From the NCBI GenBank assembly GCA_963674935.2, contig CAXXWZ010000007.1:748710-812709 (forward strand): DNA of 64,000 nucleotides, written 5' to 3'. Below, in pieces: positions 5,347-35,055 of this stretch. Under the pieces are notes generated by a model. The model made no database searches, was not told the DNA's origin, and saw only the letters and a program-made list of their open reading frames with translations. Numbering within the stretch: position 1 is the stretch's first letter; each line of letters opens with the position of its first letter. Both the position numbers and the translations under genes were made by a program. Origin of the DNA: Bacteroidales bacterium (GTDB lineage: Bacteria > Bacteroidota > Bacteroidia > Bacteroidales > GCA-2711565).

Positions 5347-6804
5347 TTACTGTTTCCGCTGTATTTGATCCAAATAATCATTGATTGGCTTTTGAGTATT
5401 GGTGTTTTTTGAAAGAATCCAGTCAACAGTAGGCTGCATATAAGATATTGATGTATTGTAAGGATTCTGATCGTAAAGTGCAAATTTTGAGTTTTCTTGA
5501 GCGTATAGATAGTCGGTTGTAAGTACCGTGTAAACCTCATTTGTTTCAATTGGTGTTCCATCTAAAAGTTTATACCCTCCAATGGTGGTCATGCCTCCAA
5601 TAATAAGATTTCCGATACAATCAATAACCTGCGCACCTGTGAGTTCAATTTCGTACAAAGTGTTTGTGAATGGTAATAACCCAACAATAGTCGCAAGCGT
5701 AATATCCCCTGGCAGAATGTCTTGCCTGATGCCTCCAGCATTTGTCATTGAAATAACTGCTTTGGGGTATGCTTCGAGCCAGGAATCAGCGACCATGTTA
5801 TGCATGGCTGCTGAATTCTTGTCAATATTTTCATCACAATATCCAATGACCAACGATAGGTCTTCTTCAGCCTTCAACTTCCATTTATCAACAACTGCAC
5901 TTACCTGATTGCTCACAGCGTTGGTAGCCGGATTGTTTACAATCTCACTAGATATTACGTTTGTAATTTTTGTTGTTTGATTATATTCAATAACTACTTT
6001 GCAATAATTTTTTAAGCCTGAACCTGATTCGATGAGTGAGACCCCGTTCACTGATTTCGATACCACCTGATGCGTATGCCCTCCAGTTATTAAAGTAACG
6101 CCAAGCGATTTTGCAACCGGTGCCAGTTGTGTCATCTCATACTCACCAATGTGTCCGGTAACAATAATAACTTCGGCACCTAAATCTTTTACGATAGGTA
6201 TATATTCATTAATCGCATCTGCATAAGATATAAAGTCAAAATCTGCCACAAAAGCAGGGAAAGTAGTTGATGGTGTGCTCTGAGATGCAAGACCAATAAA
6301 AGCAACCTTTACCCCATCGGCTTCTTCAATGATATAGGGTTGGGCAAATGAAGGTATCTCACCTGTACTTTTGGCGCGAATGTTTGCTGCAATTAAAGGG
6401 AATTCAAGCAATCTGATATTTTTGGTCAATCCTTCAATTTTAAAATCAAATTCATGATTTCCGATGGTAGCAACATCATATTCCATTTCATTCATTACTT
6501 CAACCATCGATTCGCCCTGAAACCAGGTTGAAATGGCAGGTCCTGTCCACATGTCTCCTCCACTCACAATTAAAAATGAATCAGCTCCGTTGTACCCTTC
6601 TTTGGTTTTCCATAGTTCGAACATTCCTGCTGCTCCACCAAAAGTTTCATCAGCTTGTAGCCATCCATGTTCATCGTTGGTGTATAAAATAACTATGCTT
6701 TTTAGCTTAGATTCCTGATTCTGAGTAGGAATATTATCTCTGTTATTACAGGAGAAGAGTAAGACTACAACAAGAGCGAATGATATTTTAATGAAGTTTT
6801 TCAT
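5347..6804 (-). CDS. bifunctional metallophosphatase / 5'-nucleotidase lipoprotein (UshA-like)
   Basis: 485-aa ORF with lipobox VLLFSC. Calcineurin-like metallophosphoesterase motifs (NDEHG, GGDMW, GNHEFD, GHTH) and a C-terminal 5'-nucleotidase domain. Confidence 0.85.
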   Translation of the reverse strand: MKNFIKISFALVVVLLFSCNNRDNIPTQNQESKLKSIVILYTNDEHGWLQADETFGGAAGMFELWKTKEGYNGADSFLIVSGGDMWTGPAISTWFQGESMVEVMNEMEYDVATIGNHEFDFKIEGLTKNIRLLEFPLIAANIRAKSTGEIPSFAQPYIIEEADGVKVAFIGLASQSTPSTTFPAFVADFDFISYADAINEYIPIVKDLGAEVIIVTGHIGEYEMTQLAPVAKSLGVTLITGGHTHQVVSKSVNGVSLIESGSGLKNYCKVVIEYNQTTKITNVISSEIVNNPATNAVSNQVSAVVDKWKLKAEEDLSLVIGYCDENIDKNSAAMHNMVADSWLEAYPKAVISMTNAGGIRQDILPGDITLATIVGLLPFTNTLYEIELTGAQVIDCIGNLIIGGMTTIGGYKLLDGTPIETNEVYTVLTTDYLYAQENSKFALYDQNPYNTSISYMQPTVDWILSKNTNTQKPINDYLDQIQRKQ

Positions 6805-6839
6805 ATGTCGAATTCGTAAATTAAATTAAACACAATTTG

Positions 6840-8807
6840 TTACTTAACAAATTTAGCGGTTAGTGTTTTGCGATCTGTTTTAATGATTAGCAAATACATA
6901 CCATGAGTAATTTTGCTGGCATCGATACGAGAATTGTCAAATACTCCCTGGGTAATTATATTGCTTTGTAAATCAAGAATTTGATATTCACCTTGCTCAA
7001 CATTTCGCAAATTTATAAAATCATTAACAGGATTGGGGTAGAAAATTATTTCAGTTTCAGTATTCCCTAAACTTTCAATCCCGACATTTGAATCCCAATA
7101 TTCACCTATCTTATTCCCCCATAAATATTCAGCTAAATCTGGAAGGTCGATAAATGGGTTCCTGTTTTTTTGCCAATTGTAAATGATATTGTTCCGGTTC
7201 ATTTCAAAATCATCCGGTGGATCCTGACGATGCCATACGATTAATGAATCTAAATCACCCAATTGCCCGACAGTATAATTATCAGGATTACCTGAAACCA
7301 CATCAAGTGCATTATAGCGGATGCTCATAAAAAAAATGCTTCTGGCAACATCTCCTTTCCAGCTTCCATGATTCCCCTGAGGGCCACTGTATTCTTCACC
7401 ATAATCTTTATTCGATCGGATTGAGTTTTCTGTATAATCAGAAGCTCGAAGTGAATGAGCATCTGAATGTCCATGCTCAATATGATCAGCACTTGTATTC
7501 ATATAGAGGTCAATTCCATCAGAATAAAAGGAAGTTCCGTCAGAAAAACCTCCCCTTGATTGGGGATAAATATGTTCTCTGTTCCAGTACCCTGTTGAAG
7601 TTGTTCCCGTTTGCTGTAATGATTTGTCGCGACCTTCTTCTGAGTACAAGAGCCAAACAGATAAACTGTTGGATGGATCTTGATCAGCTTCTTTTAAGAT
7701 CGCCCAAATATCCCCGTAGTTTTGGGCTCGAACCGTGTATGGATCGGCGATAATATTTTGAATGGCATTTTTTAAATCCTGGCCTTGAAGATTGGAAAGT
7801 GAACGGTAATAATTAAGGTTAGCAGTGCTGGCGACCATACCATAGGTCGGATTAAGAGGCGTTCCCCAATCACTTCCTGTTACATCATCATCTAATATTT
7901 TAATTGAGTAGTTGTTATTTATCACCGTAACATCTGCAGGGATATTAACGATTTTTACTTTTAAAAATTCATCTCCTTCGGTTTCTGTATCATTTATTAA
8001 GATAACTCTTGTTGATATAGATGTTGTCCCATTTAATATAGTTATATTATTATCTGATGTAAAATCATTTGAATTAAAGTCTCCATTTATAAGTGTAAAG
8101 GACAATGCTAGATTTTCATCCATTGCCACATCTGAAGTAAAAACAATATCAAATTCATCCCCTTCAGTAAAACTGGTATTGGAAGCTGAGATGGTAATTC
8201 TGTATTTGGTTTCAACCGTTGATCCGTCATTAGGTTGTCCGGGCGTTGGTTCTTTAACACTATAAGTGCCGTCTCCATTATTTTGAATTGAATGTTCGTT
8301 TTTATTTCCGTTCTCGTTTTCGTTAATTTGTTGGCTTTGGCCTAAAACACTTAATAATCCGGTGTCATCAGGATCGTCTGTATCATAAACAAGTGCATCG
8401 ATTAAATTGTTCCCCGTTGCCGGTGTTCCCATCGGAAAATCTGAAGCACTGGCTTGATAAATTGCAACAGCATCCGAACCATTTTGCAAGGTATTTAAAG
8501 GGAAAATAATTGATGGTCCCGGCTCCACATCCGTGTTTCCAACAAGAAATATTCCGTTAGCATCTGTAGCATATCCATTTAAATCGATGGTATAATAACT
8601 GATGTCTCCATTGCCATTGTACAATACAATGATATAACCGTCTAAACTAAAATTGGGTGTTGCGGATTTCAATTCTATAAACTCTAAAGCATCATTTATT
8701 GGTGTACTTGGCGTATCGGCATCTATTTCATTTATTATTAAGTTTTGAGAAAAAACTGTACTTAAAAAAAGCATTGAGAATATTGCAAAAAGCAGGGGAG
8801 CCTTCAT
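6840..8807 (-). CDS. secreted endonuclease I family nuclease with lamin-tail (LTD) and Calx-beta domains and a T9SS C-terminal sorting domain
   Basis: 655-aa ORF with a signal peptide. N-terminal LTD-like segment (LIINEIDAD...EFIELK). Calx-beta-like repeat (ILNGTTSISTRVILINDTETEGDEF). Endonuclease I motifs (NREHIYPQSRGG, HSLRASD, NRNPFID). C-terminal FYPNPVNDFINL... resembles a Por secretion tail. Confidence 0.85.
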   Translation of the reverse strand: MKAPLLFAIFSMLFLSTVFSQNLIINEIDADTPSTPINDALEFIELKSATPNFSLDGYIIVLYNGNGDISYYTIDLNGYATDANGIFLVGNTDVEPGPSIIFPLNTLQNGSDAVAIYQASASDFPMGTPATGNNLIDALVYDTDDPDDTGLLSVLGQSQQINENENGNKNEHSIQNNGDGTYSVKEPTPGQPNDGSTVETKYRITISASNTSFTEGDEFDIVFTSDVAMDENLALSFTLINGDFNSNDFTSDNNITILNGTTSISTRVILINDTETEGDEFLKVKIVNIPADVTVINNNYSIKILDDDVTGSDWGTPLNPTYGMVASTANLNYYRSLSNLQGQDLKNAIQNIIADPYTVRAQNYGDIWAILKEADQDPSNSLSVWLLYSEEGRDKSLQQTGTTSTGYWNREHIYPQSRGGFSDGTSFYSDGIDLYMNTSADHIEHGHSDAHSLRASDYTENSIRSNKDYGEEYSGPQGNHGSWKGDVARSIFFMSIRYNALDVVSGNPDNYTVGQLGDLDSLIVWHRQDPPDDFEMNRNNIIYNWQKNRNPFIDLPDLAEYLWGNKIGEYWDSNVGIESLGNTETEIIFYPNPVNDFINLRNVEQGEYQILDLQSNIITQGVFDNSRIDASKITHGMYLLIIKTDRKTLTAKFVK

Positions 8808-9205
8808 TGTTTAGTTTTAGTAATTATTTGAAAATGTTTTTGTCACTTGCAAAATTAGGAAAAAAATCAGTCTCAGTTTTTTTAACTTTTGGGCTTGATA
8901 AATATTAACCATTATCAAGTCATGAAAATGACACAAATATTATCACAATTTTGATAGAATTTGTGAGGATTTACTTATAATCTGACCTCTTGACTTGCAG
9001 TTTCTTTGATTGAAAATAACAGAAATGTAATTGAAGTGTAACTGAATTGAAATGATGGTTTAAAAAATCCTAATTATCAGCTAGTTCTGTTCGTCATAAA
9101 TGGGTGGTTTTTTTATTAACATTTATTAACACTTAACATTTCTGCGATTTTATTTTTTTATCTTGTTTGCTGTAAAAGAAACAAAGAATTAATAAACTAA
9201 ATTTT

Positions 9206-11770
9206 ATGCTAAAACGATTTATTATGAAAAAAATGCTACAAAGTATTGCTGTAGCAGTTATGTTTATGCTTTTTAGTAGTAGCCTAATTGCTCAAGGCTA
9301 TGTAAAAGGTGTTGTAACTGACGCTTCGGCAAAGGAAACCCTAATTGGGGCAACTGTTCTGTTGAAAGGAACATCAACAGGAGTAACTACTGATCTTGAT
9401 GGACGCTTTACCCTTAAGATTCCAGCTGGTGAACAAACATTAATTATTCAGTTTGTTGGTTTTGTTACCCAGGAAATGGCTGTTACAGTTAGCAATGGAC
9501 AAACAGTAGACCTTGGAACTATAACATTGGATGGCGATCAATTTGGATTGGATGAAATAACCGTGTTTGCCTCTCTTGGTATTGCTCGAAAAACTCCGGT
9601 AGCCATGTCATCGATATCGGCCGATCTAATTGAAAATAAATTGGGTTCTCAGGAATTTCCAGAAATCTTAAAATCAACCCCTGGTGTATATGCTACTAAG
9701 TCGGGTGGTGGATTTGGTGACGGAAGAGTGAATCTTCGTGGTTTTAATTCAGAGAACGTGGCTGTTATGATTAATGGAGCCCCTGTTAATGATATGGAAA
9801 ACGGTAGGGTATATTGGAGTAACTGGGCAGGTTTAGCTGACGTAACTCGCACCATGCAGGTACAACGTGGATTAGGAGCTTCAAAAATTGCGGTTCCATC
9901 TATTGGTGGTACTATAAATGTTGTTACCAAAACAACTGATGTTGAAGAAGGAGGGAGTGTATTTACTTCGACCGGAAATGCTGGCTACCAAAAATATGGA
10001 TTAACACTTTCAACCGGATTATCTGATAATGGTTGGGCTATGACTGTATCCGGTTCCAGAACAAAGGGAGATGGTTATATAGATGGAACTCAATTCGATG
10101 GTTTCAATTACTTCGTTAATATCTCAAAGAACTTTGGTTCAAAGCATGTCTTATCACTTAGCTCATTTGGTGCTAAGCAAAGACACGGACAAAGACAAAA
10201 TAGTCACCTCATATCAACTTACAGGGCTGCCGAAAGTGGAACTAGGTATAATGCTGATTGGGGATTGAGAGATGGACAGGTTGTTAATGTTGAAGATAAT
10301 TTCTATTTCAAGCCTCAAACTTCACTAAACCACTATTGGACAATAAATGAAAAATCAAGCCTATCAACTGCAATTTATGCCTCTTGGGGTACCGGTGGTG
10401 GCGGTGGAAGAGGCGGTGACAACGGCCTGTTTAATATTACACTTGGTGGACCAGACCAACCTATGGATATAGGTAATATCGTGAATACAAATATAGAGAA
10501 TGGTCCTTTAGGTGCTAGTGCATGGTTAAGAGCTTCTCATAACGATCATAGCTGGTATGGTTTGCTTTCTACATTTAATAGAAAATTGAATGATAATTTA
10601 GATTTTATTGCTGGTGTTGATTTAAGAACATATGTTGGACATCACTATTACGAAGTAACAGATCTATTAGGTGCATCATATATTTATAATGATGACGATA
10701 TTAATGCACCAAATCGAGCACTAAAAGTTGGTGATAAATACAATTATTATAATGATGGACGAGTTGGATGGCAAGGATTATTCACTCAATTGGAGTATAA
10801 CAAAGATAAATTAACCACCTTTGTGTCTGCATCCCTTTCAAATACATCTTATCAAAGAGTCGATTTCTTTCAGTACTTAGATTCTGATCCCATGCAAACA
10901 ACAGACAAATACAACTTTATGGGATTTGGTGTGAAAGGTGGAGCAAATTATAACCTCAGTCAAAGAAGTAATCTCTTTGCTAATATTGGTTATATTGAAA
11001 AGGCTGCTGGTTTTGATGCGGTTTTCCAAGGTTACGATAATGAACATGTTAATCAAGATGCTGTTAATCAGAAAGTATTTAGTGTTGAATTTGGATACGG
11101 ATACAGAAGTGAAAAATTCACCGCCAACTTGAACGTCTATAACACTAAGTGGAAAGATAGAACAGTAACTCGTTTTAATGTAATTGATGGCGTTACATAT
11201 TTTGCCAACTTAGTTGGAGTAAATGCCTTGCACCAAGGGATTGAACTTGATGTTACTTATAAACCCACAACAAAATTTAGAGCTTATGGAATGCTTTCTT
11301 TAGCAGATTGGAGATGGGATAATGACATAGAGAATGTCCAAATTTATAATGAGGATCAAGTTCCTGTTGGTAATCCTTTTAACTTATTTATTAAAGATGT
11401 AAAAGTTTCAAATGCTGCCCAAACAACTGCAGCTATAGGAATGGACTATCGAATTATGGAAAGAACACATTTTACACTCGATTATAACTATTATGCTGAC
11501 TTATATGCAGATTATAACCCTGATGCAAGAACAAGTGCAGGATTACCTGCGCCATGGAAAGTTCCTGCTTATGGAATTCTTGATGCAAGTATAAGGTATA
11601 GCTTCAATTTTGGTGGTTATGATGCAACCATTATCGGACGTGTAAATAATGTTTTTGATACTGAGTATATTGCTGATGCAAGAGACGGAGCAAATAATGA
11701 TGCTTTGACATCTCTAGTATGGTATGGGTTTGGAAGAACTTATAATATCAGTGCAAAAATTAATTTTTAA
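9206..11770 (+). CDS. TonB-dependent receptor with N-terminal carboxypeptidase-regulatory-like domain
   Basis: 854-aa ORF: signal peptide, CarboxypepD_reg-like beta-sandwich (VKGVVTDASAKETLIGATVLLKGTSTGVTTDLDGRF), plug (RGFNSENVAVMINGAPVND) and a C-terminal barrel ending ...YNISAKINF. Paralogous to 13710..16319. Confidence 0.85.
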   Translation: MLKRFIMKKMLQSIAVAVMFMLFSSSLIAQGYVKGVVTDASAKETLIGATVLLKGTSTGVTTDLDGRFTLKIPAGEQTLIIQFVGFVTQEMAVTVSNGQTVDLGTITLDGDQFGLDEITVFASLGIARKTPVAMSSISADLIENKLGSQEFPEILKSTPGVYATKSGGGFGDGRVNLRGFNSENVAVMINGAPVNDMENGRVYWSNWAGLADVTRTMQVQRGLGASKIAVPSIGGTINVVTKTTDVEEGGSVFTSTGNAGYQKYGLTLSTGLSDNGWAMTVSGSRTKGDGYIDGTQFDGFNYFVNISKNFGSKHVLSLSSFGAKQRHGQRQNSHLISTYRAAESGTRYNADWGLRDGQVVNVEDNFYFKPQTSLNHYWTINEKSSLSTAIYASWGTGGGGGRGGDNGLFNITLGGPDQPMDIGNIVNTNIENGPLGASAWLRASHNDHSWYGLLSTFNRKLNDNLDFIAGVDLRTYVGHHYYEVTDLLGASYIYNDDDINAPNRALKVGDKYNYYNDGRVGWQGLFTQLEYNKDKLTTFVSASLSNTSYQRVDFFQYLDSDPMQTTDKYNFMGFGVKGGANYNLSQRSNLFANIGYIEKAAGFDAVFQGYDNEHVNQDAVNQKVFSVEFGYGYRSEKFTANLNVYNTKWKDRTVTRFNVIDGVTYFANLVGVNALHQGIELDVTYKPTTKFRAYGMLSLADWRWDNDIENVQIYNEDQVPVGNPFNLFIKDVKVSNAAQTTAAIGMDYRIMERTHFTLDYNYYADLYADYNPDARTSAGLPAPWKVPAYGILDASIRYSFNFGGYDATIIGRVNNVFDTEYIADARDGANNDALTSLVWYGFGRTYNISAKINF

Positions 11771-11776
11771 TAAAAA

Positions 11777-13630
11777 ATGATGTATAAGATGAAAAAAATT
11801 ATATACTTAGCAGCGGTACTTGGACTCTTTTTCGCGTCAGCTTGTACCCCTATGAGCGATATCAATAAAGAGATAGACGCTATGGTAACCCCAATTGTTG
11901 GGAATGCAGAGTTCACACTCACCGATGCAGATTACGATGAATTGGGCTTAAATTATGGAAGCTTTAGTAATTTGGCAGATGCTAAATCAATGCTTCCACC
12001 ATACTTAAAAAGCAAATACCCAGTTTGGGGAAAAGGCTCATCAGCTCTAATCGGGTACAAATTATATGTTGGTAATGCACCCGGCGTAAGCGATTATACT
12101 TATGCTGATGTATTCACTTTGGCTAAAGCTGATTATGCAGCAAGTGGAAGTAGCGTACAAGGTTTTTATCCTGACGTAACACCTTCAGATTATTTACCTG
12201 ATGTTCTTGCGGCAAATATTACTGCTCCTGAAACTGGACAAATAGAATTAGTAAAATATACTCAATATACTGAGGTGCCTACCATTATTAGTTCTAAAGT
12301 TTATTTTGAAGAAAATCTTGATTATGGTGCTACAGCCGGAGATTTAACAACTATTTCTGCTGGAAATTGGTCAAATCATTCTGGTGCTGCAAATGAATTA
12401 GCGTATGCTGCTACTAGTTTGTCGATGACAGGTTATCCAACAACTGCTGTAGGTGGATCTATGACGATAACAAGTGCTGGATCTGAAGATGTAAATAGCG
12501 CATTTGCCACTATATCTTCAGGAAAAGTATATGCTAGTGCTTTGGTAAATTTAAGTACAGTTGGTTCTGGAACTTATTTTTTCCACTTTATGGATGATGC
12601 ATATGGTTACTCTGCCAGAGTTGGAGCTAAAGATGATGGTTCTGGTAAAATTTTATTTGGTATTGGAGCTAGCTCAAGTACTTTAACTTTTGGTACTACA
12701 GCTTTTGATTTAAACACAACTTATCTTATTGTATCATCTTACGATATAGCAAGTGGTGAAGCAAATTTGTATGTTTTAACATCCGCTGCTGCATCTGAAC
12801 CCGGAACACCAGAAGCAACAAATACTGGAAATGCTGGTTTAATTGTACAAAGAATTGGTGTTCGTCAAGGATTTGGTGGCCCCGATGCAACAATAGATGG
12901 AATACGAGTTGCTAGTTCCTGGACATCAATTATGAGTAATGATGTACTTGAAGATATTGTAACCGGAGCAAAAACTTATAACAAGGTATTTTATTCATGG
13001 ACTGGTAGTAAATGGGACATTCCTGAAGGATCATATCTCTTAACTGCTGAGGATTTTGATGCAATGGGAACCGAATATGGACAGCCTGGATATTATAATA
13101 ATTTCGGTAGTACAATACCACCTGATGATTATGTTCCTACTTTCCTAGGTATTAAATATCCATACGCATTAGCTGGCGATGAATTATTCGTGATTTATGA
13201 TTACTACTCTAGTTCAAGTGGAGCTCAATTACGAGGAAATTTATATACTGTTGTTGATGGTGCATGGAGTGGTTTTCAATCTACAATTAATACCACATTA
13301 CAATTTGGTCATGATGGTACCAATTGGGTTCCAGATAATACCATAAAATTTGAATTTGGGGCAGCAGATTATGCCTATGTAGTTTCTACTTTTACTGGTG
13401 TTTCCGGTTTTGAAAGTGCGGTCTCTAACTTAGCAAGTTATGGTAACTTTAGTTTGTTTAATTGGACTGAAGTTCAGGTGGATGCGGCGATTGATGCTGT
13501 TTTAAAACACAATTACCCTGGAATGGCAGAAGGTCAGAAATTTGCGGTTACCATTTATGTTTATGATGGTTCATCGCATAATTTATTGATAAATTATATT
13601 CTTTCCGGAGGAACTTATGTAAGACAATAA
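11777..13630 (+). CDS. surface lipoprotein of unknown function, partner of the preceding TBDT (not SusD-like)
   Basis: 617-aa ORF with lipobox LFFASAC, starting 6 nt after the TBDT stop. Gly/Ser/Thr/Ala-rich. No SusD-type TPR signature recognised. Confidence 0.6.
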   Translation: MMYKMKKIIYLAAVLGLFFASACTPMSDINKEIDAMVTPIVGNAEFTLTDADYDELGLNYGSFSNLADAKSMLPPYLKSKYPVWGKGSSALIGYKLYVGNAPGVSDYTYADVFTLAKADYAASGSSVQGFYPDVTPSDYLPDVLAANITAPETGQIELVKYTQYTEVPTIISSKVYFEENLDYGATAGDLTTISAGNWSNHSGAANELAYAATSLSMTGYPTTAVGGSMTITSAGSEDVNSAFATISSGKVYASALVNLSTVGSGTYFFHFMDDAYGYSARVGAKDDGSGKILFGIGASSSTLTFGTTAFDLNTTYLIVSSYDIASGEANLYVLTSAAASEPGTPEATNTGNAGLIVQRIGVRQGFGGPDATIDGIRVASSWTSIMSNDVLEDIVTGAKTYNKVFYSWTGSKWDIPEGSYLLTAEDFDAMGTEYGQPGYYNNFGSTIPPDDYVPTFLGIKYPYALAGDELFVIYDYYSSSSGAQLRGNLYTVVDGAWSGFQSTINTTLQFGHDGTNWVPDNTIKFEFGAADYAYVVSTFTGVSGFESAVSNLASYGNFSLFNWTEVQVDAAIDAVLKHNYPGMAEGQKFAVTIYVYDGSSHNLLINYILSGGTYVRQ

Positions 13631-13656
13631 ATGAGATTTAATTCGATTTTTTAATA

Positions 13657-13685
13657 AAAAAGGAGGTCATCGACCTCCTTTTTTA
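13657..13685. terminator. bidirectional rho-independent terminator between convergent genes
   Basis: AGGAGGTC-atc-GACCTCCT (13661-13679) flanked by an A-run upstream and a T-run downstream. Confidence 0.7.
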
Positions 13686-13709
13686 TTTCTATTCAATATA
13701 AAATGTTTG

Positions 13710-16319
13710 TTAAAAATTAAATTTTAGATTGAAGCTAAACGTTCGTCCAAAGCCCCAATTTCCTTGAAATGTTGAGAGGTTATGATTGCTTCCATCTTCA
13801 CCCCGCATCATGTATTCTTTATCAAATAAATTGAAACAACTCAGACCTGTGAAAATATCGTAGTCAGCTAATTTAAAGTTGTAACCTAAATGGCAATCTA
13901 CAAGACTGAAAGATGGAAGTTTATAGGACTGTTCGCGATCGTTAGGATTGAAGCGTGAAGTAGGGTCAAAATCAGCATAGAGACGATCATTATAGGTGTA
14001 ATTGAAACTGAAGTCGATAAGATCAAAGATTTTGCTTTTTATAAAAATACCCAATTGTGTTTGTGGTGCATCACCAACATAAAGCCCGTTTGCATAAACT
14101 TCTGTTGTATCAACCACAGCATTGTTCTCATTAAAAAGTTCAGCTACTACATCATTTTTCCATTTCCAGTCACCAAGAGTTGCCATTATACCAACACTAA
14201 GTTTCTCGCTAATTGTTTTCTCAAATTCCATCTCAATTCCTTTATGAATTGCATCAAGTCCTCGAACCAGCGCACGGGTTTGAGATTGATCTTCTAATAA
14301 AATATATTCCTTCGAAAGAAAAGAAATGTTGTGCCAGTTTGTATAATAAGCGTTCACGCTAAAACGCTGATTGTGATTTAAAAAACCGTATCCAATTTCC
14401 ATCGAATAAATGTTTTCGTTGCTGATGTTTAGCGAAGGAACATTAGTAAAATTACCGTAAATAAATTTAAAGTATGGTGCTTTTGAGTAGAAAGCAGAGT
14501 TTAAATAAATTTTGTTTTTGGGATTAAGGTGATAACTCATTCCTCCTTTTATATCAAATCCAACTTTGCTAATGCTTTCGCTTTTGATGTCGGTGATGTA
14601 ATTATATCTGTCTTCTCTCTGGTAACTGGTGAATGAAATACTGGAAGCGATGAAACTGTTAAAATTTTTATTGGCATATTCAATCTGACTGAATAAATTG
14701 GTGAAATTGATGATGGCTCCATTATCAACTTTTGTTACATCTCCCACTTGTTTTATTTGATTTCTGCCACTCACACCATCAACGGCCCAAGCATAATCAT
14801 CAATCCAAAATTCACCGCCTAATAAATCTCTCACCTTTTCTTGAAGCTTCGATTTAAAGTATCGTTGATGGATTCCTCCAATAAATTTAAATTTATCATT
14901 GATTTGATAATCGAGGCTTGAGAGGATTCCTGTCCAAACATGACTAGCTAAAAAATCGGTTTGGATAATATTTGAATATCCATTTATATTTTCACCATTA
15001 GCCAAGTTATAGTTGGGCTGATTTCCTGTATTTAAACCATAAATTCCATCCCAATCAATCTGCTGACTGGCATTTCTGAATGAAAAAATAGATGGGCCGT
15101 AAATATAATTTGATGGATCGTAGTTAAAAGATTCAGCCCATTTTCCACCACCGTAACCGTATGAAAAATAAGCAGACGTTGCCAAAAACATTTTATCGTT
15201 AATTTTCCAATAGTGGTTAAGATTTGCTTGAGGTTTGTGGTAATAATTTTCGGAAATGTTGTTTAGTTTTCCATTGTAACTGCCCCAATCTTTATTGAAT
15301 TTTATGCCATGCTGTTTCACTTCATCATTTGAGAGTAAAAGGTTACGCTGGCCATGTTTTTCGGGAGCACCCAAAAGTGTAAAAGTCATTTTATGATTTT
15401 TATTGAATTGTTTACTAGCCGATAAAAAATATGCCCAGGCATCAACATAGGTTGCATCAACATAGCCGGGGCCAGAAGTGTGTGAGCCCAAGAACGTAAT
15501 GGCCCATCCATTATCCAAAAGGCCTGAAGACAAACTAATGGTGTTTTTTTTATTACCATAACTACTTATTGAATGAAGGAAAGATCCACCCTTTTTAGCA
15601 TTTGTAGATTTAGTAATAATGTTGATGGTTCCACCTATAGAATTTAATGCAACTTTTGATGCACCTATTCCTTTTTGTACCTGAATCATTTCAGTGGCTT
15701 CTGCAAGCCCAATCCAGTTGTTCCAATAAACCAGGCCATTTTCAACGCTACTAATTGGGATCCCGTTGAGGAGTAGTGCAACATTTTCTTGTTTAAATCC
15801 TCTTAAGCTTACTTTGGCATCGCCGCTACCGCCACCGGTTCTGGTTGCATAAATTCCCGGAATGCTTTTCATGATTTCAGGATAGGTTTGATCGCCCAAC
15901 TCTTTTTCAATCACAGCCGATCTTATGTTTGAAACTGAAACGGGTGTGTTGTTGTCTGTAACAATCGAAGAGATAATATTAACTTCAATTAAATCGATTG
16001 ATTCGGGTTCAAGAGATAAATTACCCAATTCGATTAAATGATCAGAACCACCTGCTAGCACTATCGTTTGAATCTTAAAACCCAGCGAACTCACAATTAA
16101 TTTTTGTGGTCTGGATTTAAGTTCTAAACTAAAATTTCCTGAATAATCTGTAATCGTACCGATTGATCTGTCGCTGGATAAATAAATATTTGCACCCGGA
16201 ATTCCTTCAGAGTCAATACTACTAATAATTTTCCCTGTAATCGAGAACTGTGCCCAAATGTTGGTTGTAATTAAGCTTAGGGTGAGCCCCCAAATAAGTG
16301 TAAAAATTTTTCTTTTCAT
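13710..16319 (-). CDS. TonB-dependent receptor (CarboxypepD_reg + plug + barrel), FMN-riboswitch controlled; candidate riboflavin receptor
   Basis: 869-aa ORF with the same architecture and many shared motifs as 9206..11770 (for example YYHKPQANLNHYWKINDK versus FYFKPQTSLNHYWTINEK). Ends ...FSFNLKFNF. Preceded by the riboswitch and terminator described below. Confidence 0.85.
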   Translation of the reverse strand: MKRKIFTLIWGLTLSLITTNIWAQFSITGKIISSIDSEGIPGANIYLSSDRSIGTITDYSGNFSLELKSRPQKLIVSSLGFKIQTIVLAGGSDHLIELGNLSLEPESIDLIEVNIISSIVTDNNTPVSVSNIRSAVIEKELGDQTYPEIMKSIPGIYATRTGGGSGDAKVSLRGFKQENVALLLNGIPISSVENGLVYWNNWIGLAEATEMIQVQKGIGASKVALNSIGGTINIITKSTNAKKGGSFLHSISSYGNKKNTISLSSGLLDNGWAITFLGSHTSGPGYVDATYVDAWAYFLSASKQFNKNHKMTFTLLGAPEKHGQRNLLLSNDEVKQHGIKFNKDWGSYNGKLNNISENYYHKPQANLNHYWKINDKMFLATSAYFSYGYGGGKWAESFNYDPSNYIYGPSIFSFRNASQQIDWDGIYGLNTGNQPNYNLANGENINGYSNIIQTDFLASHVWTGILSSLDYQINDKFKFIGGIHQRYFKSKLQEKVRDLLGGEFWIDDYAWAVDGVSGRNQIKQVGDVTKVDNGAIINFTNLFSQIEYANKNFNSFIASSISFTSYQREDRYNYITDIKSESISKVGFDIKGGMSYHLNPKNKIYLNSAFYSKAPYFKFIYGNFTNVPSLNISNENIYSMEIGYGFLNHNQRFSVNAYYTNWHNISFLSKEYILLEDQSQTRALVRGLDAIHKGIEMEFEKTISEKLSVGIMATLGDWKWKNDVVAELFNENNAVVDTTEVYANGLYVGDAPQTQLGIFIKSKIFDLIDFSFNYTYNDRLYADFDPTSRFNPNDREQSYKLPSFSLVDCHLGYNFKLADYDIFTGLSCFNLFDKEYMMRGEDGSNHNLSTFQGNWGFGRTFSFNLKFNF

Positions 16320-16342
16320 TCTTCAATAAATTAATAATTCAT

Positions 16343-16371
16343 AAAAAAACCCCAATATAAAAGTTCGGGGC
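16343..16371 (-). terminator. intrinsic terminator forming the FMN riboswitch expression platform
   Basis: Minus-strand RNA (U)GCCCCGAA-CUUUUAUA-UUGGGG followed by U7 (plus-strand A7 at 16343-16349), about 25 nt before the TBDT ATG. The left arm UGCCCCGAA is a perfect 9-nt complement of UUCGGGGCA at the 5' end of the aptamer. Confidence 0.7.
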
Positions 16372-16453
16372 ATTGAATTATCATTTATTGATACACATAA
16401 TATAAATCTCTGAGCGAGACATATATATGAATAAAAAGTAAATCGATAATATT

Positions 16454-16579
16454 CTTCTTTCATCCAGACTGTACTGTCGGTACCTGAGTTTCACAGGTTC
16501 AGTCTCGCCTTTGGCAAGAGTCGCGGACTTTAACCGCCGGTCGGGAATTTTTGCATTTGCAAATCACCCTGCCCCGAAG
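16454..16579 (-). promoter_or_regulatory. FMN riboswitch (RFN element) aptamer
   Basis: Minus strand reads CUUCGGGGCAGGGUGA[UUUGCAAAUGCAAA]AAUUCCCGACCGGCGGUUAAAGUCCGCGACUCUUGCCAAAGGCGAGACUGAACCUGUGAAACUCAGGUACCGACAGUACAGUCUGGAUGAAAGAAG. It contains essentially all invariant RFN blocks (CUUCGGGGCAGGGUGAAAUUCCCGACCGGCGGU..AGUCCGCGA ... ACCGACAGU..AGUCUGGAUG..AGAAG) and a closing P1 helix UUCUUC/GAAGAA. A TATTTTTG -7-like box lies at 16593-16600. Confidence 0.9.
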
Positions 16580-16668
16580 AAATTAATCAGTGCAAAAATA
16601 GTATTTTAATTAATCAAAAAAGAGCAAAATCCTAATTTAGAATGGGTATTTTTTTTGTGCGAAAAGTT

Positions 16669-22227: not shown

Positions 22228-25200
22228 TTATTCTTCACTAACTTCAGCTTTCGCTGCCATTAATGCTTCGTATTCTTCGCTAGAACCTGTAATTATTTTT
22301 TGATAATCACGAAGTCCTGTACCTGCAGGAATTTTATGTCCAACAATTACATTCTCTTTCAAGCCAAGTAAATGGTCAGCTTTGGCCATAATTGAAGCTT
22401 GAGTTAGTACTTTTGTTGTTTCCTGGAAGGATGCAGCAGAGATAAAACTATTGGTTTGTAGTGATGCACGTGTTATTCCCTGAAGCACCTGGCGAGCAGT
22501 TGCCGGAGAAGCTTCTCTTGAAACAATGAGTGCTTTATCCTTACGTTTAAGCATAGAGTTCTCATCTCTCAATTTACGAGCACTTACAATTTGTCCAGCT
22601 TTAAAATTATCAGATTCACCAGAGTCTTCAACTACTTTCTTTCCGAAAATTTCATCATTCTCGTCCATAAAAGCAATTTTGTTAACGAGTTCCCCTTCTA
22701 GGAATTTAGTGTCGCCTGGGTCTGCAACTTCCACTTTACGCATCATTTGACGTACGATGACCTCGAAATGCTTATCGTTAATTTTCACACCTTGTAATCG
22801 ATAAACTTCCTGGATTTCGTTTACGATATATTCTTGAACTTTCATAGGTCCTTTAATTGCAAGGATGTCAGCAGGTGTCATAACACCTTCTGATAATGGA
22901 GTTCCGGCTTTTACATAATCGTTTTCCTGAGCAAGGATTTGTTTACTGGTAGAAATAAGATATCTCTTTTCTTCACCTGTTTTTGAAGTGATTATAACTT
23001 CACGATTTCCACGTTTAAGTTTTTTACCAAAGCTTACTACACCATCAATTTCAGATACAACAGCTGGGTCGGAAGGATTACGAGCTTCAAATAACTCAGT
23101 TACCCTTGGAAGACCACCTGTGATATCACCAGATTTTCCAATGGCTCGAGGAATTTTAACAAGAACTTCACCAGCTTTAACTTTGGCATTTTCGCTAACA
23201 ATGATGTGAGATCCAACAGGAATATCATAAGATCTGATTTCAACTCCATCAGCATTAAGGATAGAGATGTTTGGATTTTTAGATTTAGAACGCGATTCAA
23301 TAACTACTTTGTCTTGATAACCCGTTTGCTCATCCGATTCAACACGATAAGTTAAACCTTCAATGATATTATTAAATACGGTTTTACCATTTACATCAGT
23401 TAAGATTACAGCATTGTATGGATCCCAAGAACTAATTAAAGTTCCTTTTTTGATATCTATTCCACTTTTAACCATCAATGAAGATCCGTAAGGGATGTTA
23501 CCAGAGGTTAAAACGATTTGTGTTTTCTTATCTAATATTCGCATTTCTGCTGATCGTCCAACTACGATATCGTATTTTTCTCCGGCTTCGTTTTTATATT
23601 CAACTGAGCGTAATTCATCAATTTCAAGAATACCATCAAATTTTGCTTCAATTTTTGATAAAATGGCAACATTAGATGCAGTACCCCCAACGTGGAATGT
23701 ACGAAGTGTTAACTGGGTTCCTGGTTCACCAATTGATTGAGCAGCAATTACTCCAACAGATTCTCCTCTTTGAACCATTCGGCCTGAAGCAAGGTTACGA
23801 CCATAGCATTTTGCACAAACACCATGTTTTGATTCGCAGGTAAGTACCGAACGAATTTCAACTGCTTCAATAGGAGATTCATCAATTAAACGACTTATAT
23901 CTTCAGTTAGTTCCTCACCCGATTTGATAATTAACTCTTCAGTTATTGGATGAAAAATATCATGTACTGTTGTTCTTCCTAAAATTCGGTCATATAATGA
24001 TTCAACAACCTCTTCACTTTTCTTCAGCGCAGCAGTTGTTAAACCTCTTAAAGTTCCACAATCTTCTTCGGAAATGATAACATCTTGAGCAACATCAACC
24101 AAACGTCTGGTTAAGTAACCAGCATCAGCAGTTTTAAGCGCTGTATCAGCTAAACCCTTACGAGCACCGTGAGTTGAAATAAAATACTCAAGAACTGAAA
24201 GACCTTCTTTAAAGTTTGAAAGAATTGGATTCTCAATAATTTCACCTCCGGTTGCACCTGATTTTTGAGGTTTGGCCATCAATCCCCTCATTCCTGATAA
24301 CTGACGAATCTGTTCTTTTGATCCCCTAGCTCCAGAATCCAGCATCATATATACTGAATTGAAGCCTTGTTGGTCTTTTGAAATTTGATCCATCAAAGTA
24401 TGGGTGAGTTGAGAGTTGGTATGTGTCCAAATATCAATAATCTGGTTATAACGTTCGTTATTGGTAATGAATCCCATGTTATAGTTATTCATCACTTCCT
24501 CTACTTCTAAATTAGCATCTGCAACGAGTTGAACTTTTTCTTCAGGAATTAATACATCACCTAAATTGAAAGATAAACCACCTTCGAATGCCATTGTAAA
24601 TCCAAGATGTTTAATATCATCAAGAAATTTAGTTGTAACGGCAGTGCCAGTTCTTCTAACAACATCACCAATAATATCTCGTAATGCCTTTTTAGTTAGG
24701 AGTTGGTTAATATAACCGTATTCTTCCGGAACAACCTGATTGAATAAAACCCTACCAACAGTTGTTTCTATTAGTTTATTAACCTTTACCCCATTTTCAA
24801 TATCATTCGTTTTTACACTAATAAGCGCATGGAGATCAACTTTGTTTTCGTTATAAGCAATGATTACTTCCTCGGGAGAATAAAATTTATAACCTTCGCC
24901 TTTAATAGGATACTCAGGTGTGTTTTTTCTACCTTTGGTCATATAATATAACCCCAAAACCATGTCCTGAGATGGCACTGTAATAGGTGCACCATTAGCA
25001 GGATTAAGAATATTGTGAGATGCAAGCATCAAGATTTGGGTTTCCAGAATTGCAGCATTTCCTAACGGAACGTGAACAGCCATTTGGTCACCATCAAAGT
25101 CGGCATTGAAAGCAGTACAAACCAATGGGTGTAATTGAATCGCTTTTCCCTCAATTAATTTAGGCTGAAATGCCTGAATTCCTAAACGGTGAAGGGTAGG

Positions 25201-26520
25201 AGCACGGTTTAACATGATTGGGTGACCTTTCAAAATGTTTTCAAGGATATCCCAGACAACCGGATCTTTGCGGTCAACAATTTTCTTGGCAGATTTTACA
25301 GTTTTAACAATTCCTCTTTCGAGCATTTTTCGAATGATAAACGGCTTGAATAATTCAGAAGCCATATCTTTCGGAATACCACACTCATTAAGTTTTAAAT
25401 TTGGTCCAACAACAATTACTGAACGACCTGAATAATCAACACGTTTACCAAGTAAGTTTTGACGGAAACGCCCTTGCTTACCTTTTAAACTGTCACTTAA
25501 TGATTTTAGAGCTCTGTTGGATTCTGTTTTAACAGAATTTGCTTTTCTTGAATTATCGAATAATGAATCAACTGCTTCCTGAAGCATACGTTTTTCATTA
25601 CGCATGATTACATCCGGTGCTTTGATTTCAATTAATCGTTTTAATCGGTTATTACGAATAATAACACGACGATATAAATCATTTAAATCGGAAGTTGCAA
25701 AACGACCACCATCAAGAGGTACCAAAGGACGTAATTCTGGCGGAATTACTGGTACAACTTTAACGATCATCCATTCCGGTCTGTTTTCGATTCTGGTTCG
25801 GGCATCACGGAATGCTTCATATACCTGAAGTCTTTTTAAAGCTTCTGCTTTACGTTGTTGAGATGTTTCGGTATTTGCTTTGTGACGAAGATCGAATGAC
25901 ATTTGATCAAGATCAAGTCTGGCCAAAAGATCATGAATTGCTTCAGCACCCATTTTTGCAATAAACTTGTCAGGATCAGAATCATCGAGGTATTGGTTTT
26001 CGGCTGGAAGACTTTCGATGATATCGAAATATTCTTCTTCAGTTAAAAAATCAAGATAATTGATACCTTCAGGAGCTTTAATACCTGCATTGATAACAAT
26101 GTATCGCTCGTAATAAATAATCATGTCGAGCTTCTTGGTTTGTAAACCAAGCAAAGCACCTATTTTATTAGGTAATGAACGGAAAAACCAAATATGTGCC
26201 ACAGGTACAACAAGCTGGATGTGACCAATACGTTCACGTCTTACCTTTTTCTCGGTAACTTCTACCCCACAACGATCACAAACAATACCTTTATAACGAA
26301 TTCTTTTGTATTTACCGCAATGACATTCCCAATCCTTAACAGGGCCGAAGATTCTTTCACAGAACAATCCGTCGCGTTCAGGTTTATAGGTACGATAGTT
26401 AATGGTTTCCGGTTTGAGAACTTCACCACTTGATTTTTCAAGAATTGCTTCAGGAGAAGCAAGACTAATGGTCATTTTAGAGAATGTTCCAGTTCCGGGG
26501 TTTTCTTTTCGAAAAGCCAT
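22228..26520 (-). CDS. rpoC: DNA-directed RNA polymerase subunit beta'
   Basis: 1430-aa ORF with the [12 protein letters not shown] catalytic motif and a Zn-binding [23 protein letters not shown] motif. Confidence 0.98.
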
Positions 26521-26600
26521 ATGTTGAGTTTAATTTGAATTTGTAAAGAACAAAAAGTGTATGCACAAGGATATTTTAGAATACCCTTGTGCAAATATTT

Positions 26601-29600
26601 TTAATCAAATGTTACCTTTAAGCCAAGGCCTTGCAGTTCGTGTACCAATACATTAAAAGACTCAGGCAAGCCAGGAGTTGGCATGTTTTCACCTTTAACA
26701 ATTGATTCGTAAGCTTTAGCCCTCCCGATAACATCATCCGATTTAACGGTAAGGATTTCCTGGAGAACGTTGGATGCACCAAATGCTTCAAGTGCCCAAA
26801 CCTCCATTTCACCAAATCGCTGACCACCAAACTGTGCTTTACCACCCAAAGGTTGTTGCGTAATAAGTGAATAAGGTCCGATTGAACGAGCGTGCATTTT
26901 GTCATCCACCATATGGTGAAGTTTCAGCATATAGATATAACCTACCGTTGCTGGCTGGTCAAATCGTTTTCCTGTTCCTCCATCATTTAGATATACTCTC
27001 CCATTTTCAGGTAAATTAGCATCGGTTAAATATCGGTTGATTTCATCTACACTGGCACCATCAAAAATAGGAGTTGCAAATTTAACGCCCATTTTTTTAC
27101 CAGCCCAACCAAGTACTGTTTCGTAAATCTGCCCAAGGTTCATCCTTGAAGGAACTCCCAACGGATTTAATACGATATCTACCGGTGTACCATCATCTAG
27201 GAATGGCATGTCTTCTTCACGTACAATTTTTGCAACAATACCTTTGTTACCATGACGACCAGCCATTTTATCTCCAACTTTAAGTTTACGCTTTTTAGCT
27301 ACATAAACTTTTGCCATCTGAATAATTCCATTTGGAAGGTCATCACCAACAGTTGCTACAAATCTTTTACGATTGAAAACTCCAAGTAATTCTTTATGTT
27401 TAATGTTGTAATTATTGATCAATGTTTTAATCAAATCGTTCTTATCCTTATCAGTTGTCCATTTATTTGGATTGATATTAGCATAATCAACGGCGATCAA
27501 TAATTTTTGAGTAAATTTTGATTTCTTAGGAATGATTTCCTCTTTGTAGTTGTTAAAAACTCCTTGCGAAGTTTTACCACTCACCAGTACATTAAGTTTT
27601 TCAACAAGTTTTTCTTTTAACTCAGCTGCGTCTCTTAAATGTTCATCTTCCAAGGCCTGAATAATTTCTTTTTCACGAACTTTGGATTTTCTGTCTTTAA
27701 TAACTCTTGAGAATAACTTTTTATTTACCACAACCCCCTTCATTGAAGGTGGTGCTTTAAGTGAAGCATTCTTCACATCTCCAGCTTTGTCGCCGAAAAT
27801 TGCACGTAAAAGTTTTTCCTCAGGTGTAGGATCACTTTCTCCTTTCGGAGTAATTTTTCCTATCAGGATATCTCCTTCATTAACTTCAGCACCAATTCTT
27901 ATTAAACCGTTTTCGTCTAAATCTTTGGTAGCTTCAGCACTTACGTTTGGAATATCGTTTGTTAATTCTTCAATTCCACGTTTTGTATCTCTAACTTCAA
28001 GTGTAAATTCTTCAATATGAACTGAAGTAAAGATATCTTCTTTAACAACTCGTTCAGAAATTACAATAGCATCCTCAAAATTATATCCTTTCCAAGGCAT
28101 AAAAGCAACCATTAGGTTTCTTCCCAAAGCAAGCTCACCCTTTTGGGTTGCATAACCTTCGCATAAAACCATTCCTTTGGATACTTTATCACCTTTTCGA
28201 ACAATAGGTCGTAAATTGATGCTTGTATTCTGATTGGTACGTGTAAATTTAGTTAAGGTATAAGTTTTTAGATCATCTTCGAAACTAACAAGTCGATCTG
28301 TATCTGTTCTCTCGTATCTGATTTTAATAGTATCAGAGTCAACAAATTCAACGGTACCCTCACCTTCTGCATTAATTAATACGCGTGAATCACGAACAAC
28401 CTGGCCTTCAATTCCGGTTCCAACAATAGGACTTTCAGAATTTAATAGAGGCACAGCCTGACGCATCATATTTGATCCCATCAATGCACGGTTGGCATCG
28501 TCATGCTCCAAAAATGGAATAAGTGATGCAGCTATCGATGCAATTTGATTAGGGGCGATATCAATAAGGTCAACCTTTTCTTTTTCGATAATTGGATAAT
28601 CAGCTAAAAACCTAGCTTTTACCTTATCTCTTTGAAATGTTAAACCATCTTCTCTAAGAATAGTACTTGCCTGAGCAATGATTTTTTTCTCTTCTTCTTC
28701 AGCACTTAAATAAATAGGTTCAACTCCACCTTCAATTTTCCCTTCAATTACATTTCTATAAGGAGTTTCGATGAATCCGAGTTTATTTATTTTCGCAAAT
28801 ACACAAAGTGAAGAAATTAAACCAATATTTGGTCCCTCAGGAGTTTCAATGGTACAAAGTCGTCCGTAGTGCGTATAGTGAACATCACGAACCTCAAAGC
28901 CAGCACGCTCACGAGATAAACCACCTGGACCTAAAGCAGAAACACGACGTTTGTGTGTAACTTCAGATAGGGGATTGGTTTGATCCATAAATTGTGAAAG
29001 CTGATTCGTTCCGAAGAAAGAATTAATAACAGATGATAATGTTTTTGCATTAATCAGATCGGTAGGGGTGAAAACCTCATTGTCACGAACATTCATTCTC
29101 TCTCGGATGGTACGAGCCATTCTGGCCAATCCAACACCGAATTGAGAATATAATTGCTCACCAACAGTTCTTACCCTACGATTACTTAAGTGATCAATAT
29201 CATCAACATCTGCCTTAGCATTAATCAAATTAATAAGATATTTAATGATAGAAATAATATCTTCTTTGGTTAATACCTTTGTTTCGGCAGGTGTATCGTT
29301 TTGCAACTTTTTATTAATTCGATATCGTCCAACATCTCCTAAATCATAACGTTTGTCTGAGAAAAAGAGTTTATCGATGATTCCTCTGGCAGTTTCTTCG
29401 TCAGGAGGTTCAGCATTACGTAACTGTCGATAAATAAATTCAACAGCTTCTTTTTCAGAGTTTGCGGTATCTTTTTGTAGGGTGTTGAAAATGATACTGT
29501 AATCAGAAGCATTTGCATCATCTTTGTGAATAAGAATTGTTTTAATTCCTGCATCTACAATCAAATCGATGTGCTTGTTTTCTAATTCAGTTTCTCTGTC

Positions 29601-30410: not shown

Positions 30411-30424
30411 GGTTTTAAAGTTTT

Positions 30425-30442
30425 AGCCCGCCGAGGCGGGCT
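30425..30442 (-). promoter_or_regulatory. GC-rich hairpin in the rplL-rpoB spacer (candidate attenuator or processing site)
   Basis: AGCCCGC-CUCG-GCGGGCU, 7 bp with a tetraloop, in an otherwise AT-rich 135-nt spacer. Followed only by a weak U-tract. Confidence 0.45.
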
Positions 30443-30545
30443 GGTTAGTAGCCTAATTTATTACCAAAATCCAGAAGCTGACTGTGATTCTACTAAATAA
30501 TTAGAAGATAGTCTTCATCTCTCCACTTAGTAAATAACAAACTAC

Positions 30546-30920: not shown

Positions 30921-30976
30921 TTTATTTTTGTTTTTAATTGTTTTTAAAATTTAATCTTCAATATTCTAATGCCTGT

Positions 30977-31498: not shown

Positions 31499-31524
31499 AA
31501 CTAAAAATTCTATTTACCAGACAA

Positions 31525-32220: not shown

Positions 32221-32270
32221 TTGCTAATCTCTTAAATAATTATTGACTAATAATCTAAATGCAACTGCAC

Positions 32271-32717: not shown

Positions 32718-32765
32718 TTTGTTTTAAACTTATTGAGTTTATAATTGGGCTGAAATTTAATAATA

Positions 32766-33308: not shown

Positions 33309-33366
33309 ACCAATTCTGGAATTATTATTGATTTATTATCAAATAAAATATTAGATGCAACAATGA

Positions 33367-33564: not shown

Positions 33565-33579
33565 TATCTAATATTTTTG

Positions 33580-34983: not shown

Positions 34984-35055
<72 letters not shown>

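Follow-up and report, generated by a model that had tools for sequence, protein, structure and literature searches.

We analysed a window of 64,000 nt from a Bacteroidales bacterium (assembly GCA_963674935.2, contig CAXXWZ010000007.1, positions 748,710 to 812,709); all coordinates below without a locus label refer to this window. The subject is a minus-strand gene encoding an 869-aa TonB-dependent outer-membrane transporter (TBDT), together with the flavin mononucleotide (FMN) riboswitch that lies directly in front of it. The analysis establishes which aptamer this is, which structures compete in the leader, how the gene is organised, and that the arrangement is conserved and covaries over about 100 loci. 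In the direction of transcription, the unit consists of the following features:

16593–16600, minus strand: Bacteroidetes-type -7 promoter box TATTTTTG (TAnnTTTG), called from sequence
16448–16585, minus strand: FMN riboswitch aptamer (RF00050), full length with canonical core, E = 8.2e-21
16570–16578, minus strand: antiterminator 5' strand UUCGGGGCA, common to aptamer P1/J1-2 and complementary to 16364–16372
16343–16372, minus strand: intrinsic terminator from the minimum free energy (MFE) fold, with 5' arm UGCCCCGA(A), 9-nt loop, 3' arm UUGGGGU and U7
13710–16319, minus strand: TonB-dependent outer-membrane transporter, 869 aa, candidate flavin importer (PF13715 and PF07715)
13653–13687, both strands: bidirectional intrinsic terminator between the TBDT stop codon and the convergent gene, a 16-bp G+C-rich hairpin with A-run and U-run

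The FMN aptamer and its expression platform

An Rfam cmscan of the whole window identified a single riboswitch, the remaining matches being six tRNAs. The riboswitch match covers the full RF00050 model (1–138/138) at 95.7 bits, above the gathering score of 66.2 bits that defines family membership, and contains the RFN element that an earlier sequence-only reading of this stretch had placed at 16454–16579 on the minus strand. All strongly conserved consensus positions of RF00050 are matched, and the multi-helix aptamer is also seen in an RNA fold of 16300–16600 (minus strand; z = -4.4 versus shuffles). The TATTTTTG box, which we take to be a promoter element from its agreement with the Bacteroides -7 consensus, places the transcription start a few nucleotides 5' of the aptamer. 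Alignment of 31 orthologous aptamers reveals invariant core blocks and double compensatory changes in 10 of the 30 predicted pairs, including a P1 pair that occurs as AU or UA at 14:14 and pairs of the P4 and P5 stems that alternate between CG, UA and GC. The orthologous aptamers thus share the six-helix junction with conserved core and covarying stems that characterizes RF00050. This combination of an invariant core with stems that vary under compensation is evidence that selection acts on the leader RNA, and the RNA of 16448–16585 probably binds FMN.

Downstream of the aptamer, the MFE fold contains a hairpin of GCCCCGA (16371–16365) and UUGGGGU (16355–16349), followed by U7 at 16349–16343, reproducing the terminator that had been described at 16343–16371. 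The hairpin alone has a free energy of -9.0 kcal/mol. A consensus terminator scan omitted it because the scan allows loops of at most 8 nt and this loop has 9. The 5' arm of the terminator doubles as the 3' strand of the antiterminator: TGCCCCGAA (16372–16364) is the perfect reverse complement of TTCGGGGCA (16578–16570) in the 5' strand of the aptamer. The complementarity claimed by the sequence-only reading is therefore exact over 9 nt, for which the chance expectation is about 5e-4 (a given 9-mer in the 130-nt linker). The duplex of 16570–16578 with 16364–16372 amounts to -17.5 kcal/mol. For the leader 16588–16338, the MFE structure (-68.9 kcal/mol) consists of aptamer plus terminator, and forcing the 9-bp antiterminator yields -68.2 kcal/mol, within 0.7 of the MFE; when the transcript ends before the 3' arm of the terminator, the antiterminator fold is itself the MFE structure. 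The leader thus has an expression platform with an alternative pairing that overlaps the aptamer, as is characteristic of RF00050 riboswitches. In these folding models terminator and antiterminator exclude each other and differ little in energy, the bistable layout that would be expected of a kinetic transcription-termination OFF switch, and we infer that the gene is controlled by termination in vivo.

The transporter gene and its relatives

The start codon of the 869-aa open reading frame (ORF) lies 23 nt 3' of the U-tract. By inspection, the protein has a signal-peptide-like N-terminus, a long C-terminal region and a terminal Phe. A CarboxypepD_reg-like domain (CarbopepD_reg_2, PF13715; residues 27–113) is followed by a Plug domain (PF07715; residues 123–231) that scores 52.5 bits against a cutoff of 23.9 and places the protein in the TBDT superfamily. 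The TonB-box-like motif LIEVNIISS (residues 110–118), called by eye, lies between the N-terminal domain and the plug, and LxEVNIISS is at least 90% conserved. PF00593 was not detected in the window protein at E <= 0.001 and is present in the precomputed annotation of several orthologs. Modelling with AlphaFold2 on 33 orthologs (pLDDT 66, pTM 0.64) gave the plug and barrel fold; Foldseek matched the model with probability 1.0 to FecA, Fiu, PqqU, FhuA, OprC, BtuB and others at 10–15% identity, and the TM scores (0.6–0.76 to FecA, Fiu, PqqU, FhuA and BtuB, normalised by target length) identify the barrel.

Sequence matches to solved structures were limited to PirA at the plug (4e-6) and a short fragment of a SusC homolog at the N-terminal domain (1.4e-4). 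No NCBIfam equivalog (BtuB, FepA, FhuA, haem receptors and others) was reached, the best being TIGR01779 with 38.6 against 599.7 bits, and all NCBIfam matches are confined to the plug. The protein shares only its N-terminal CarboxypepD_reg-like domain with the SusC/RagA type; it has no TIGR04056 match and its gene has no SusD-like partner. A plug and barrel fold without a named equivalog argues that the protein is a genuine TBDT and belongs to a family not yet characterised. At E < 1e-20 we found 806 homologs, the best 120 of which are full length with 50–83% identity. Their sources name the 806 only generically or as "iron complex receptor" or "cobalamin receptor", and we judge the latter names to be wrong because the NCBIfam scores fall far below the cutoffs.

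At the other end of the gene, ORF 11777–13630 on the plus strand is convergent with the TBDT gene, and a 101-nt stretch around the bidirectional terminator at 13653–13687 folds with z = -4.6 versus shuffles. With its own terminator and a convergent neighbour, the unit is monocistronic and the riboswitch controls exactly one gene, in agreement with the claim that the TBDT is the only gene downstream.

Related loci were collected by a scan of genomes (species representatives; 35 loci, nearly all from metagenome-assembled genomes (MAGs) of Bacteroidales or Lentimicrobiaceae) and by a profile-based scan of metagenomes (80 further loci with 41–81% TBDT identity); the two sets overlap in part. RF00050 scored above the gathering score directly 5' of the TBDT and on the same strand in 31 of the 35 genome loci. 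Leaving out two loci that begin inside the gene (L018 and L021), the linkage is found in all 33 genome loci with upstream sequence: 31 above the gathering score, one N-masked (L032) and one split (L010). Metagenome leaders were searched with a covariance model built from the 31 ortholog aptamers, and 73 of the 80 carried the aptamer directly 5' of the TBDT (73/74 with upstream sequence), six of the seven unmatched loci having essentially no upstream sequence. Taken together, 107 related loci have sequence in front of the TBDT, and in 106 of these the aptamer lies directly 5' of the gene on the same strand, over TBDTs that are 40–82% identical. A cofactor riboswitch is thus conserved directly upstream of a TBDT across species, and the expectation that orthologs would be consistently preceded by RF00050 was borne out. 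The aptamer was never found in front of the paralogous TBDTs at the same loci (TBDT2 and Oar-like TBDTs, 29–38% identity). The near-universal retention of the aptamer over this range of protein divergence argues for a direct relation between ligand and cargo.

Two apparent irregularities were set aside. L032 was considered as a degenerate aptamer and rejected, as its partial match of 56 bits has the 5' part masked by Ns. Tandem FMN aptamers in L010 and L044 were likewise rejected, as the alignments are two halves of one aptamer separated by a P4-loop insertion of about 200 nt. In L044 (3942–4274, identical in sequence to L010 1052–1464) the two halves as well as the terminator behind them are intact; the insertion, partly N-masked in L010, may be a mobile element or a structured extension. 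As separate observations, L030 (5673–9782) and L034 (5762–7998) retain an intact riboswitch (96 and 110 bits, respectively) in front of a TBDT frame split into short ORFs, which may reflect pseudogenisation or assembly error; in L030, an intact TBDT2 and a gene for a nucleotide pyrophosphatase/phosphodiesterase (NPP) come after TBDT fragments of 190 and 88 aa. L034 is binned as archaeal and L027 as a Clostridia MAG, probably through mis-binning. Tandem GTGAAG[CG]G-type octamers directly follow the TBDT stop codon in L018 (2468–2580).

We then compared 84 distinct leader sequences across the related loci. A TAnnTTTG box is present within 70 nt 5' of the aptamer in 79 of them, against a background of 3.4% of 70-nt windows. 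A strict energy-based detector found a hairpin with a T-run in 70 of 84 leaders; it typically ends 15–35 nt 5' of the start codon. Complementarity of at least 7 nt between terminator arm and aptamer 5' segment was found in 81% of leaders, compared with 18% of shuffles. Moreover, the aptamer segment has one variable position (TTC[G/A]GGGC), and in 55 of 56 scorable leaders the base found there pairs with its counterpart in the terminator arm, GCCC[C/T]G (G:C 30, A:T 21, G:T 4, A:C 1). The antiterminator model predicts this pattern of covariation, which comes from related sequences and not from independent events. The near-isoenergetic folds of the window leader and the covarying long-range pairing over 84 leaders support the OFF switch by transcription termination that had been proposed from the window alone.

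Proposed mechanism and competing explanations

We propose that the leader is an FMN-dependent OFF switch acting by transcription termination on a monocistronic outer-membrane flavin importer, a reading to which we give a probability of about 0.68. More specifically, a Bacteroidetes-type promoter would start transcription just 5' of the canonical FMN aptamer. At high FMN, P1 and the UUCGGGGCA segment would be part of an aptamer folded around FMN; UGCCCCGA would then be available for the terminator hairpin, and RNA polymerase would stop at the U-tract, some 25 nt 5' of the start codon. At low FMN, UUCGGGGCA would pair with UGCCCCGAA to form the antiterminator, the terminator would not form and the 869-aa transporter would be made. 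The transporter would use TonB/ExbBD energy to import external flavin (riboflavin, FMN or flavin adenine dinucleotide (FAD)) across the outer membrane, and a permease encoded elsewhere would take the flavin across the inner membrane. We regard the pair of aptamer and TBDT as the strongest candidate at hand for a so far undescribed importer of flavins across the outer membrane.

Several points weigh against this proposal. That the substrate is a flavin is deduced from the regulation of the gene, and riboflavin, FMN and FAD are not distinguishable from these data; the AlphaFold2 model is of moderate quality and, matching all TBDTs about equally, offers no clue to the substrate. Known riboflavin permease families were not seen in the window or in the ~6-kb flanks of the loci, and rib genes were not found in the window or in the ~6-kb flanks of 115 loci, a weak negative obtained with E. 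coli sequences as queries on these short flanks. Among the leaders, 14 of 84 failed the strict detector for a hairpin with T-run, and at least four (L089, L091, L095 and L101) have a hairpin without a T-run, so that the read-out may differ in some lineages. One locus, L090 (TBDT 45% identical), has upstream sequence and no aptamer and is the sole such exception. Finally, the loci are phylogenetically related, so that fewer independent events lie behind the tallies of loci and covarying pairs than the numbers suggest. As a side observation, the TBDT gene of L090 (1685–4698) begins 65 nt downstream of an ORF for a hydrophobic protein of 125 aa that by eye resembles the fluoride channel CrcB.

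The main competing explanations concern the cargo; two groups of genes in the window bear on them:

5347–6804, minus strand: UshA-like 5'-nucleotidase lipoprotein
6840–8807, minus strand: secreted endonuclease I with T9SS C-terminal sorting domain
9116–9130, plus strand: TTAA[CT]A-type direct repeat, ~90 nt 5' of ORF 9206–11770
9206–11770, plus strand: TBDT2, paralog of the riboswitch-linked TBDT (FMN-TBDT)
11777–13630, plus strand: 617-aa lipoprotein without a Pfam match
41408–42778, minus strand: protoporphyrinogen oxidase, in an iron/haem cluster at 41408–47495
42782–44155, minus strand: oxygen-independent coproporphyrinogen III oxidase HemN, same cluster
44157–45377, minus strand: RhtX/FptX/AmpG-like MFS permease, same cluster
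45381–47495, minus strand: siderophore-type TBDT, same cluster

At many loci a second TBDT lies just 3' of the FMN-TBDT, either a TBDT2 paralog (29–38% identity) or an Oar-like barrel of ~1090 aa. In at least 39 loci the FMN-TBDT, the TBDT2 or Oar-like TBDT and a PF01663 NPP lipoprotein follow each other on the same strand, with a PhoD-like phosphatase next in L009 and L032 and a 5'-nucleotidase in L002. This arrangement raises the alternative that the FMN-TBDT imports FAD or FMN, which the neighbouring phosphoesterases (NPP-type nucleotide pyrophosphatase, UshA-like 5'-nucleotidase, PhoD-like phosphatase) would trim to riboflavin before it crosses the inner membrane, and that the FMN-TBDT is a duplicate of the adjacent nucleotide-scavenging TBDT2. 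The paralogy of the two TBDTs keeps flavin nucleotides open as cargo. The TBDT2 of the window adjoins the 5'-nucleotidase and endonuclease I genes, and FAD (785 Da) is closer than riboflavin to the usual size of a TBDT substrate. Against this, the downstream unit seems to be regulated separately. The spacers 5' of the second TBDT/phosphoesterase unit carry a direct repeat TTAA[CT]A-N4-6-TTAA[CT] (e.g., TGTTAATAAAATGTTAACA, ~11-bp period), with 31 matches in 6.4 kb of spacers versus 1.06 in shuffles and an occurrence in 17 of 23 loci (L002, L004–L006, L008, L009, L011, L013–L015, L018, L024, L025, L030, L032 and others); the repeat looks like a response-regulator binding site, possibly of Pho type. 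Several of these spacers have their own -7 box, and none of the downstream TBDT and phosphoesterase genes at the related loci carries an aptamer. Adjacency also says little in this clade, as the unrelated upstream genes (NlpC/P60, 7TM-HD and WbqC) are equally syntenic with the FMN-TBDT. In the window and in L001 the TBDT2 unit is not downstream of the FMN-TBDT; in the window it is rearranged so that TBDT2 and the 617-aa lipoprotein converge on an FMN-TBDT that has its own terminator. Weighing both sides, we regard trimmed flavin nucleotides as an unlikely cargo, albeit one to be taken seriously. A single FMN operon of TBDT, second TBDT and NPP as "FAD pyrophosphatase" was rejected as the principal interpretation on the grounds of the spacer's own repeat and -7 box, the equal upstream synteny, and the terminator and convergent neighbour of the window TBDT. 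A broader version, in which environmental Bacteroidales have a dedicated flavin gate in the outer membrane, the first TBDT for vitamin B2, duplicated from an adjacent nucleotide- or DNA-scavenging TBDT, importing FAD and FMN set free by cell lysis and served by phosphoesterase trimming, is speculative and slightly more doubtful still; if true, riboflavin would be a traded public good with riboswitch-gated uptake in communities of anoxic sediment, groundwater and digesters.

Alternatively, FMN could be an indirect signal for a non-flavin nutrient that is needed when flavins are scarce, such as iron or haem replacing flavodoxin-type enzymes. Iron and riboflavin metabolism cross-regulate in several bacteria (PMC6041382), some orthologs carry automated names of iron-complex or cobalamin receptors, and the nearest matches of the TBDT are siderophore receptors both in plug sequence (PirA) and in fold (Fiu, FecA). 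These names and matches are generic, however, no NCBIfam siderophore, haem or B12 model came near its cutoff, and the window holds a siderophore-type TBDT with an RhtX/FptX-type permease and haem genes elsewhere, at 41408–47495. Moreover, surveyed FMN regulons consist only of genes for flavin biosynthesis and flavin transport (PMC3766115), and near-universal retention of the aptamer across divergent TBDTs speaks for a direct signal; we regard this explanation as improbable. We give even less credence to a third one, in which the riboswitch is real and the TBDT takes up an analogue or a degradation product of flavin (such as roseoflavin-like compounds, lumichrome or a lumazine precursor), or acts as a receptor or secretion channel as Oar-type proteins do. 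Some TBDT-like proteins do act in export (Oar of Myxococcus), and transporters have been linked to rare variants of the FMN riboswitch whose specificity is altered, but the aptamer core here is canonical and invariant with no sign of a variant class, the plug is ordinary and accompanied by a TonB-box-like motif, and a gene that is OFF at high FMN fits acquisition rather than export.

Related systems and other features of the window

The proposed flavin importer can be placed among known systems on the side of both its leader and its protein. The ribD (ribDEAHT) leader of Bacillus subtilis, the archetype of an RFN element with terminator and antiterminator, belongs to the same aptamer family RF00050 and presumably follows the same OFF logic, its 5' segment UUCGGGGC pairing with the terminator arm GCCCCGAA. 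It controls cytoplasmic biosynthesis genes in a Firmicute, whereas the window leader has a TAnnTTTG promoter and serves a single outer-membrane TBDT. In a survey of riboswitch regulons, FMN regulons comprised only biosynthesis genes and inner-membrane transporters (PMC3766115). The transporters RibU, PnuX/RibM, ImpX, RibN, RfnT, RibZ and RibXY share the FMN signal and presumed role in flavin salvage (PMC3766115; PMC4418817; PMC6593275); they are cytoplasmic-membrane permeases or ECF/ABC components, to which the TBDT is unrelated in fold and location.

Among riboswitch-linked TBDTs, the closest parallel is OMthi (BT2390) of Bacteroides thetaiotaomicron, a thiamine TBDT that was predicted from its TPP riboswitch and then received genetic support (PMC5613172), with a similar case in Caldithrix (PMC5317091). 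OMthi likewise has a cofactor-sensing riboswitch directly upstream of a Bacteroidota TBDT; it differs in that it responds to TPP, serves thiamine and is usually in an operon with, or near, PnuT and a kinase, whereas the window TBDT has no nearby partner. Riboswitch control of a B12 TBDT is established (PMC5317091). BtuB (in E. coli, and with BtuG in Bacteroides) is alike in being a vitamin TBDT under a coenzyme-sensing riboswitch and in its fold (1nqe), but is only 11% identical to the window TBDT, which stays far below the TIGR01779 cutoff and has no adjacent BtuG-like lipoprotein in the window. In E. coli, control of btuB reportedly acts mostly on the initiation of translation (PMC11162775). 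PqqU (PDB 9c4o), a TBDT dedicated to the small redox cofactor PQQ, is among the top structural matches of the window TBDT, although at 14% identity it is no closer than the siderophore receptors; to our knowledge it is not controlled by a riboswitch.

The sequence-only reading knew of no characterised riboflavin-specific TBDT, and our search of openly accessible full text (subscription papers, RegPrecise, SEED and TCDB being outside its scope) likewise returned no report of a flavin TBDT or of a link between FMN riboswitch and TBDT; the terms "TonB", "outer membrane" and "Bacteroid" are all absent from a survey devoted to riboflavin transporters (PMC4418817). No protein has been assigned to the passage of riboflavin or flavin nucleotides across the Gram-negative outer membrane, the catalogued transporters all being located in the cytoplasmic membrane (PMC4418817; PMC6593275). 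If the proposed role in flavin import is true, vitamin B2 would join B12 and B1 as vitamins with riboswitch-gated TBDT importers, the FMN regulon would extend to the outer membrane, and a functional name would become available for a family of several hundred members, whose present label is "TonB-dependent receptor" or, wrongly, that of an iron or cobalamin receptor. Given the B12 and B1 precedents, a riboswitch-gated TBDT for a third vitamin would not be astonishing, yet it would fill a gap. FMN riboswitches are hereby found in Bacteroidales, an order whose best-studied family, the Bacteroidaceae, was reported to lack an FMN regulon (PMC3766115). The combination of aptamer and TBDT could serve as a sequence marker for flavin salvage and cross-feeding in metagenomes, the leader offers a compact and well-defined transcription-termination riboswitch for Bacteroidota genetics, and roseoflavin and other antibiotics that are flavin analogues may enter cells through the transporter.

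The screened proteins of the window are consistent with the earlier statement that an inner-membrane flavin partner is absent from it, the only polytopic candidates being the 7TM-HD protein and the MFS permease at 44157–45377. The latter was considered as an RfnT/RibZ-type riboflavin carrier and rejected, as it is RhtX/FptX/AmpG-like and lies within the siderophore/haem cluster. We read the region 5347–13630 as a putative unit for scavenging nucleic acids, nucleotides or phosphate, presumably with its own regulator and outside the FMN regulon; it loosely recalls DNA-utilisation (ddb) loci (PMC12478041). For the 617-aa lipoprotein, a role like that of DdbD/DUF5689 proteins, as partner to a TBDT for DNA uptake (PMC12478041), was considered and rejected, since the protein has no Pfam match even at E = 10.

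In 24 of the related loci (L022–L025, L029, L031, L035 and about 17 metagenome loci), a thioredoxin-reductase-like flavoprotein of ~320 aa (TIGR01292, 330.7 bits, just under the cutoff of 343.45) and a 115-aa protein without a family match lie between the NlpC/P60 gene and the riboswitch; the presence of a flavoenzyme beside a flavin-controlled gene may be a coincidence. Elsewhere in the window, two adjoining small DUF4491 membrane proteins of 103 and 98 aa are encoded at 47978–48733 (minus strand). The six tRNA genes lie at 33580–35357 (minus strand) and 37170–37245 (plus strand), and the large ORFs beside them (22228–37245) resemble by eye a cluster of rpoC/rpoB, ribosomal protein, nusG and tuf genes.

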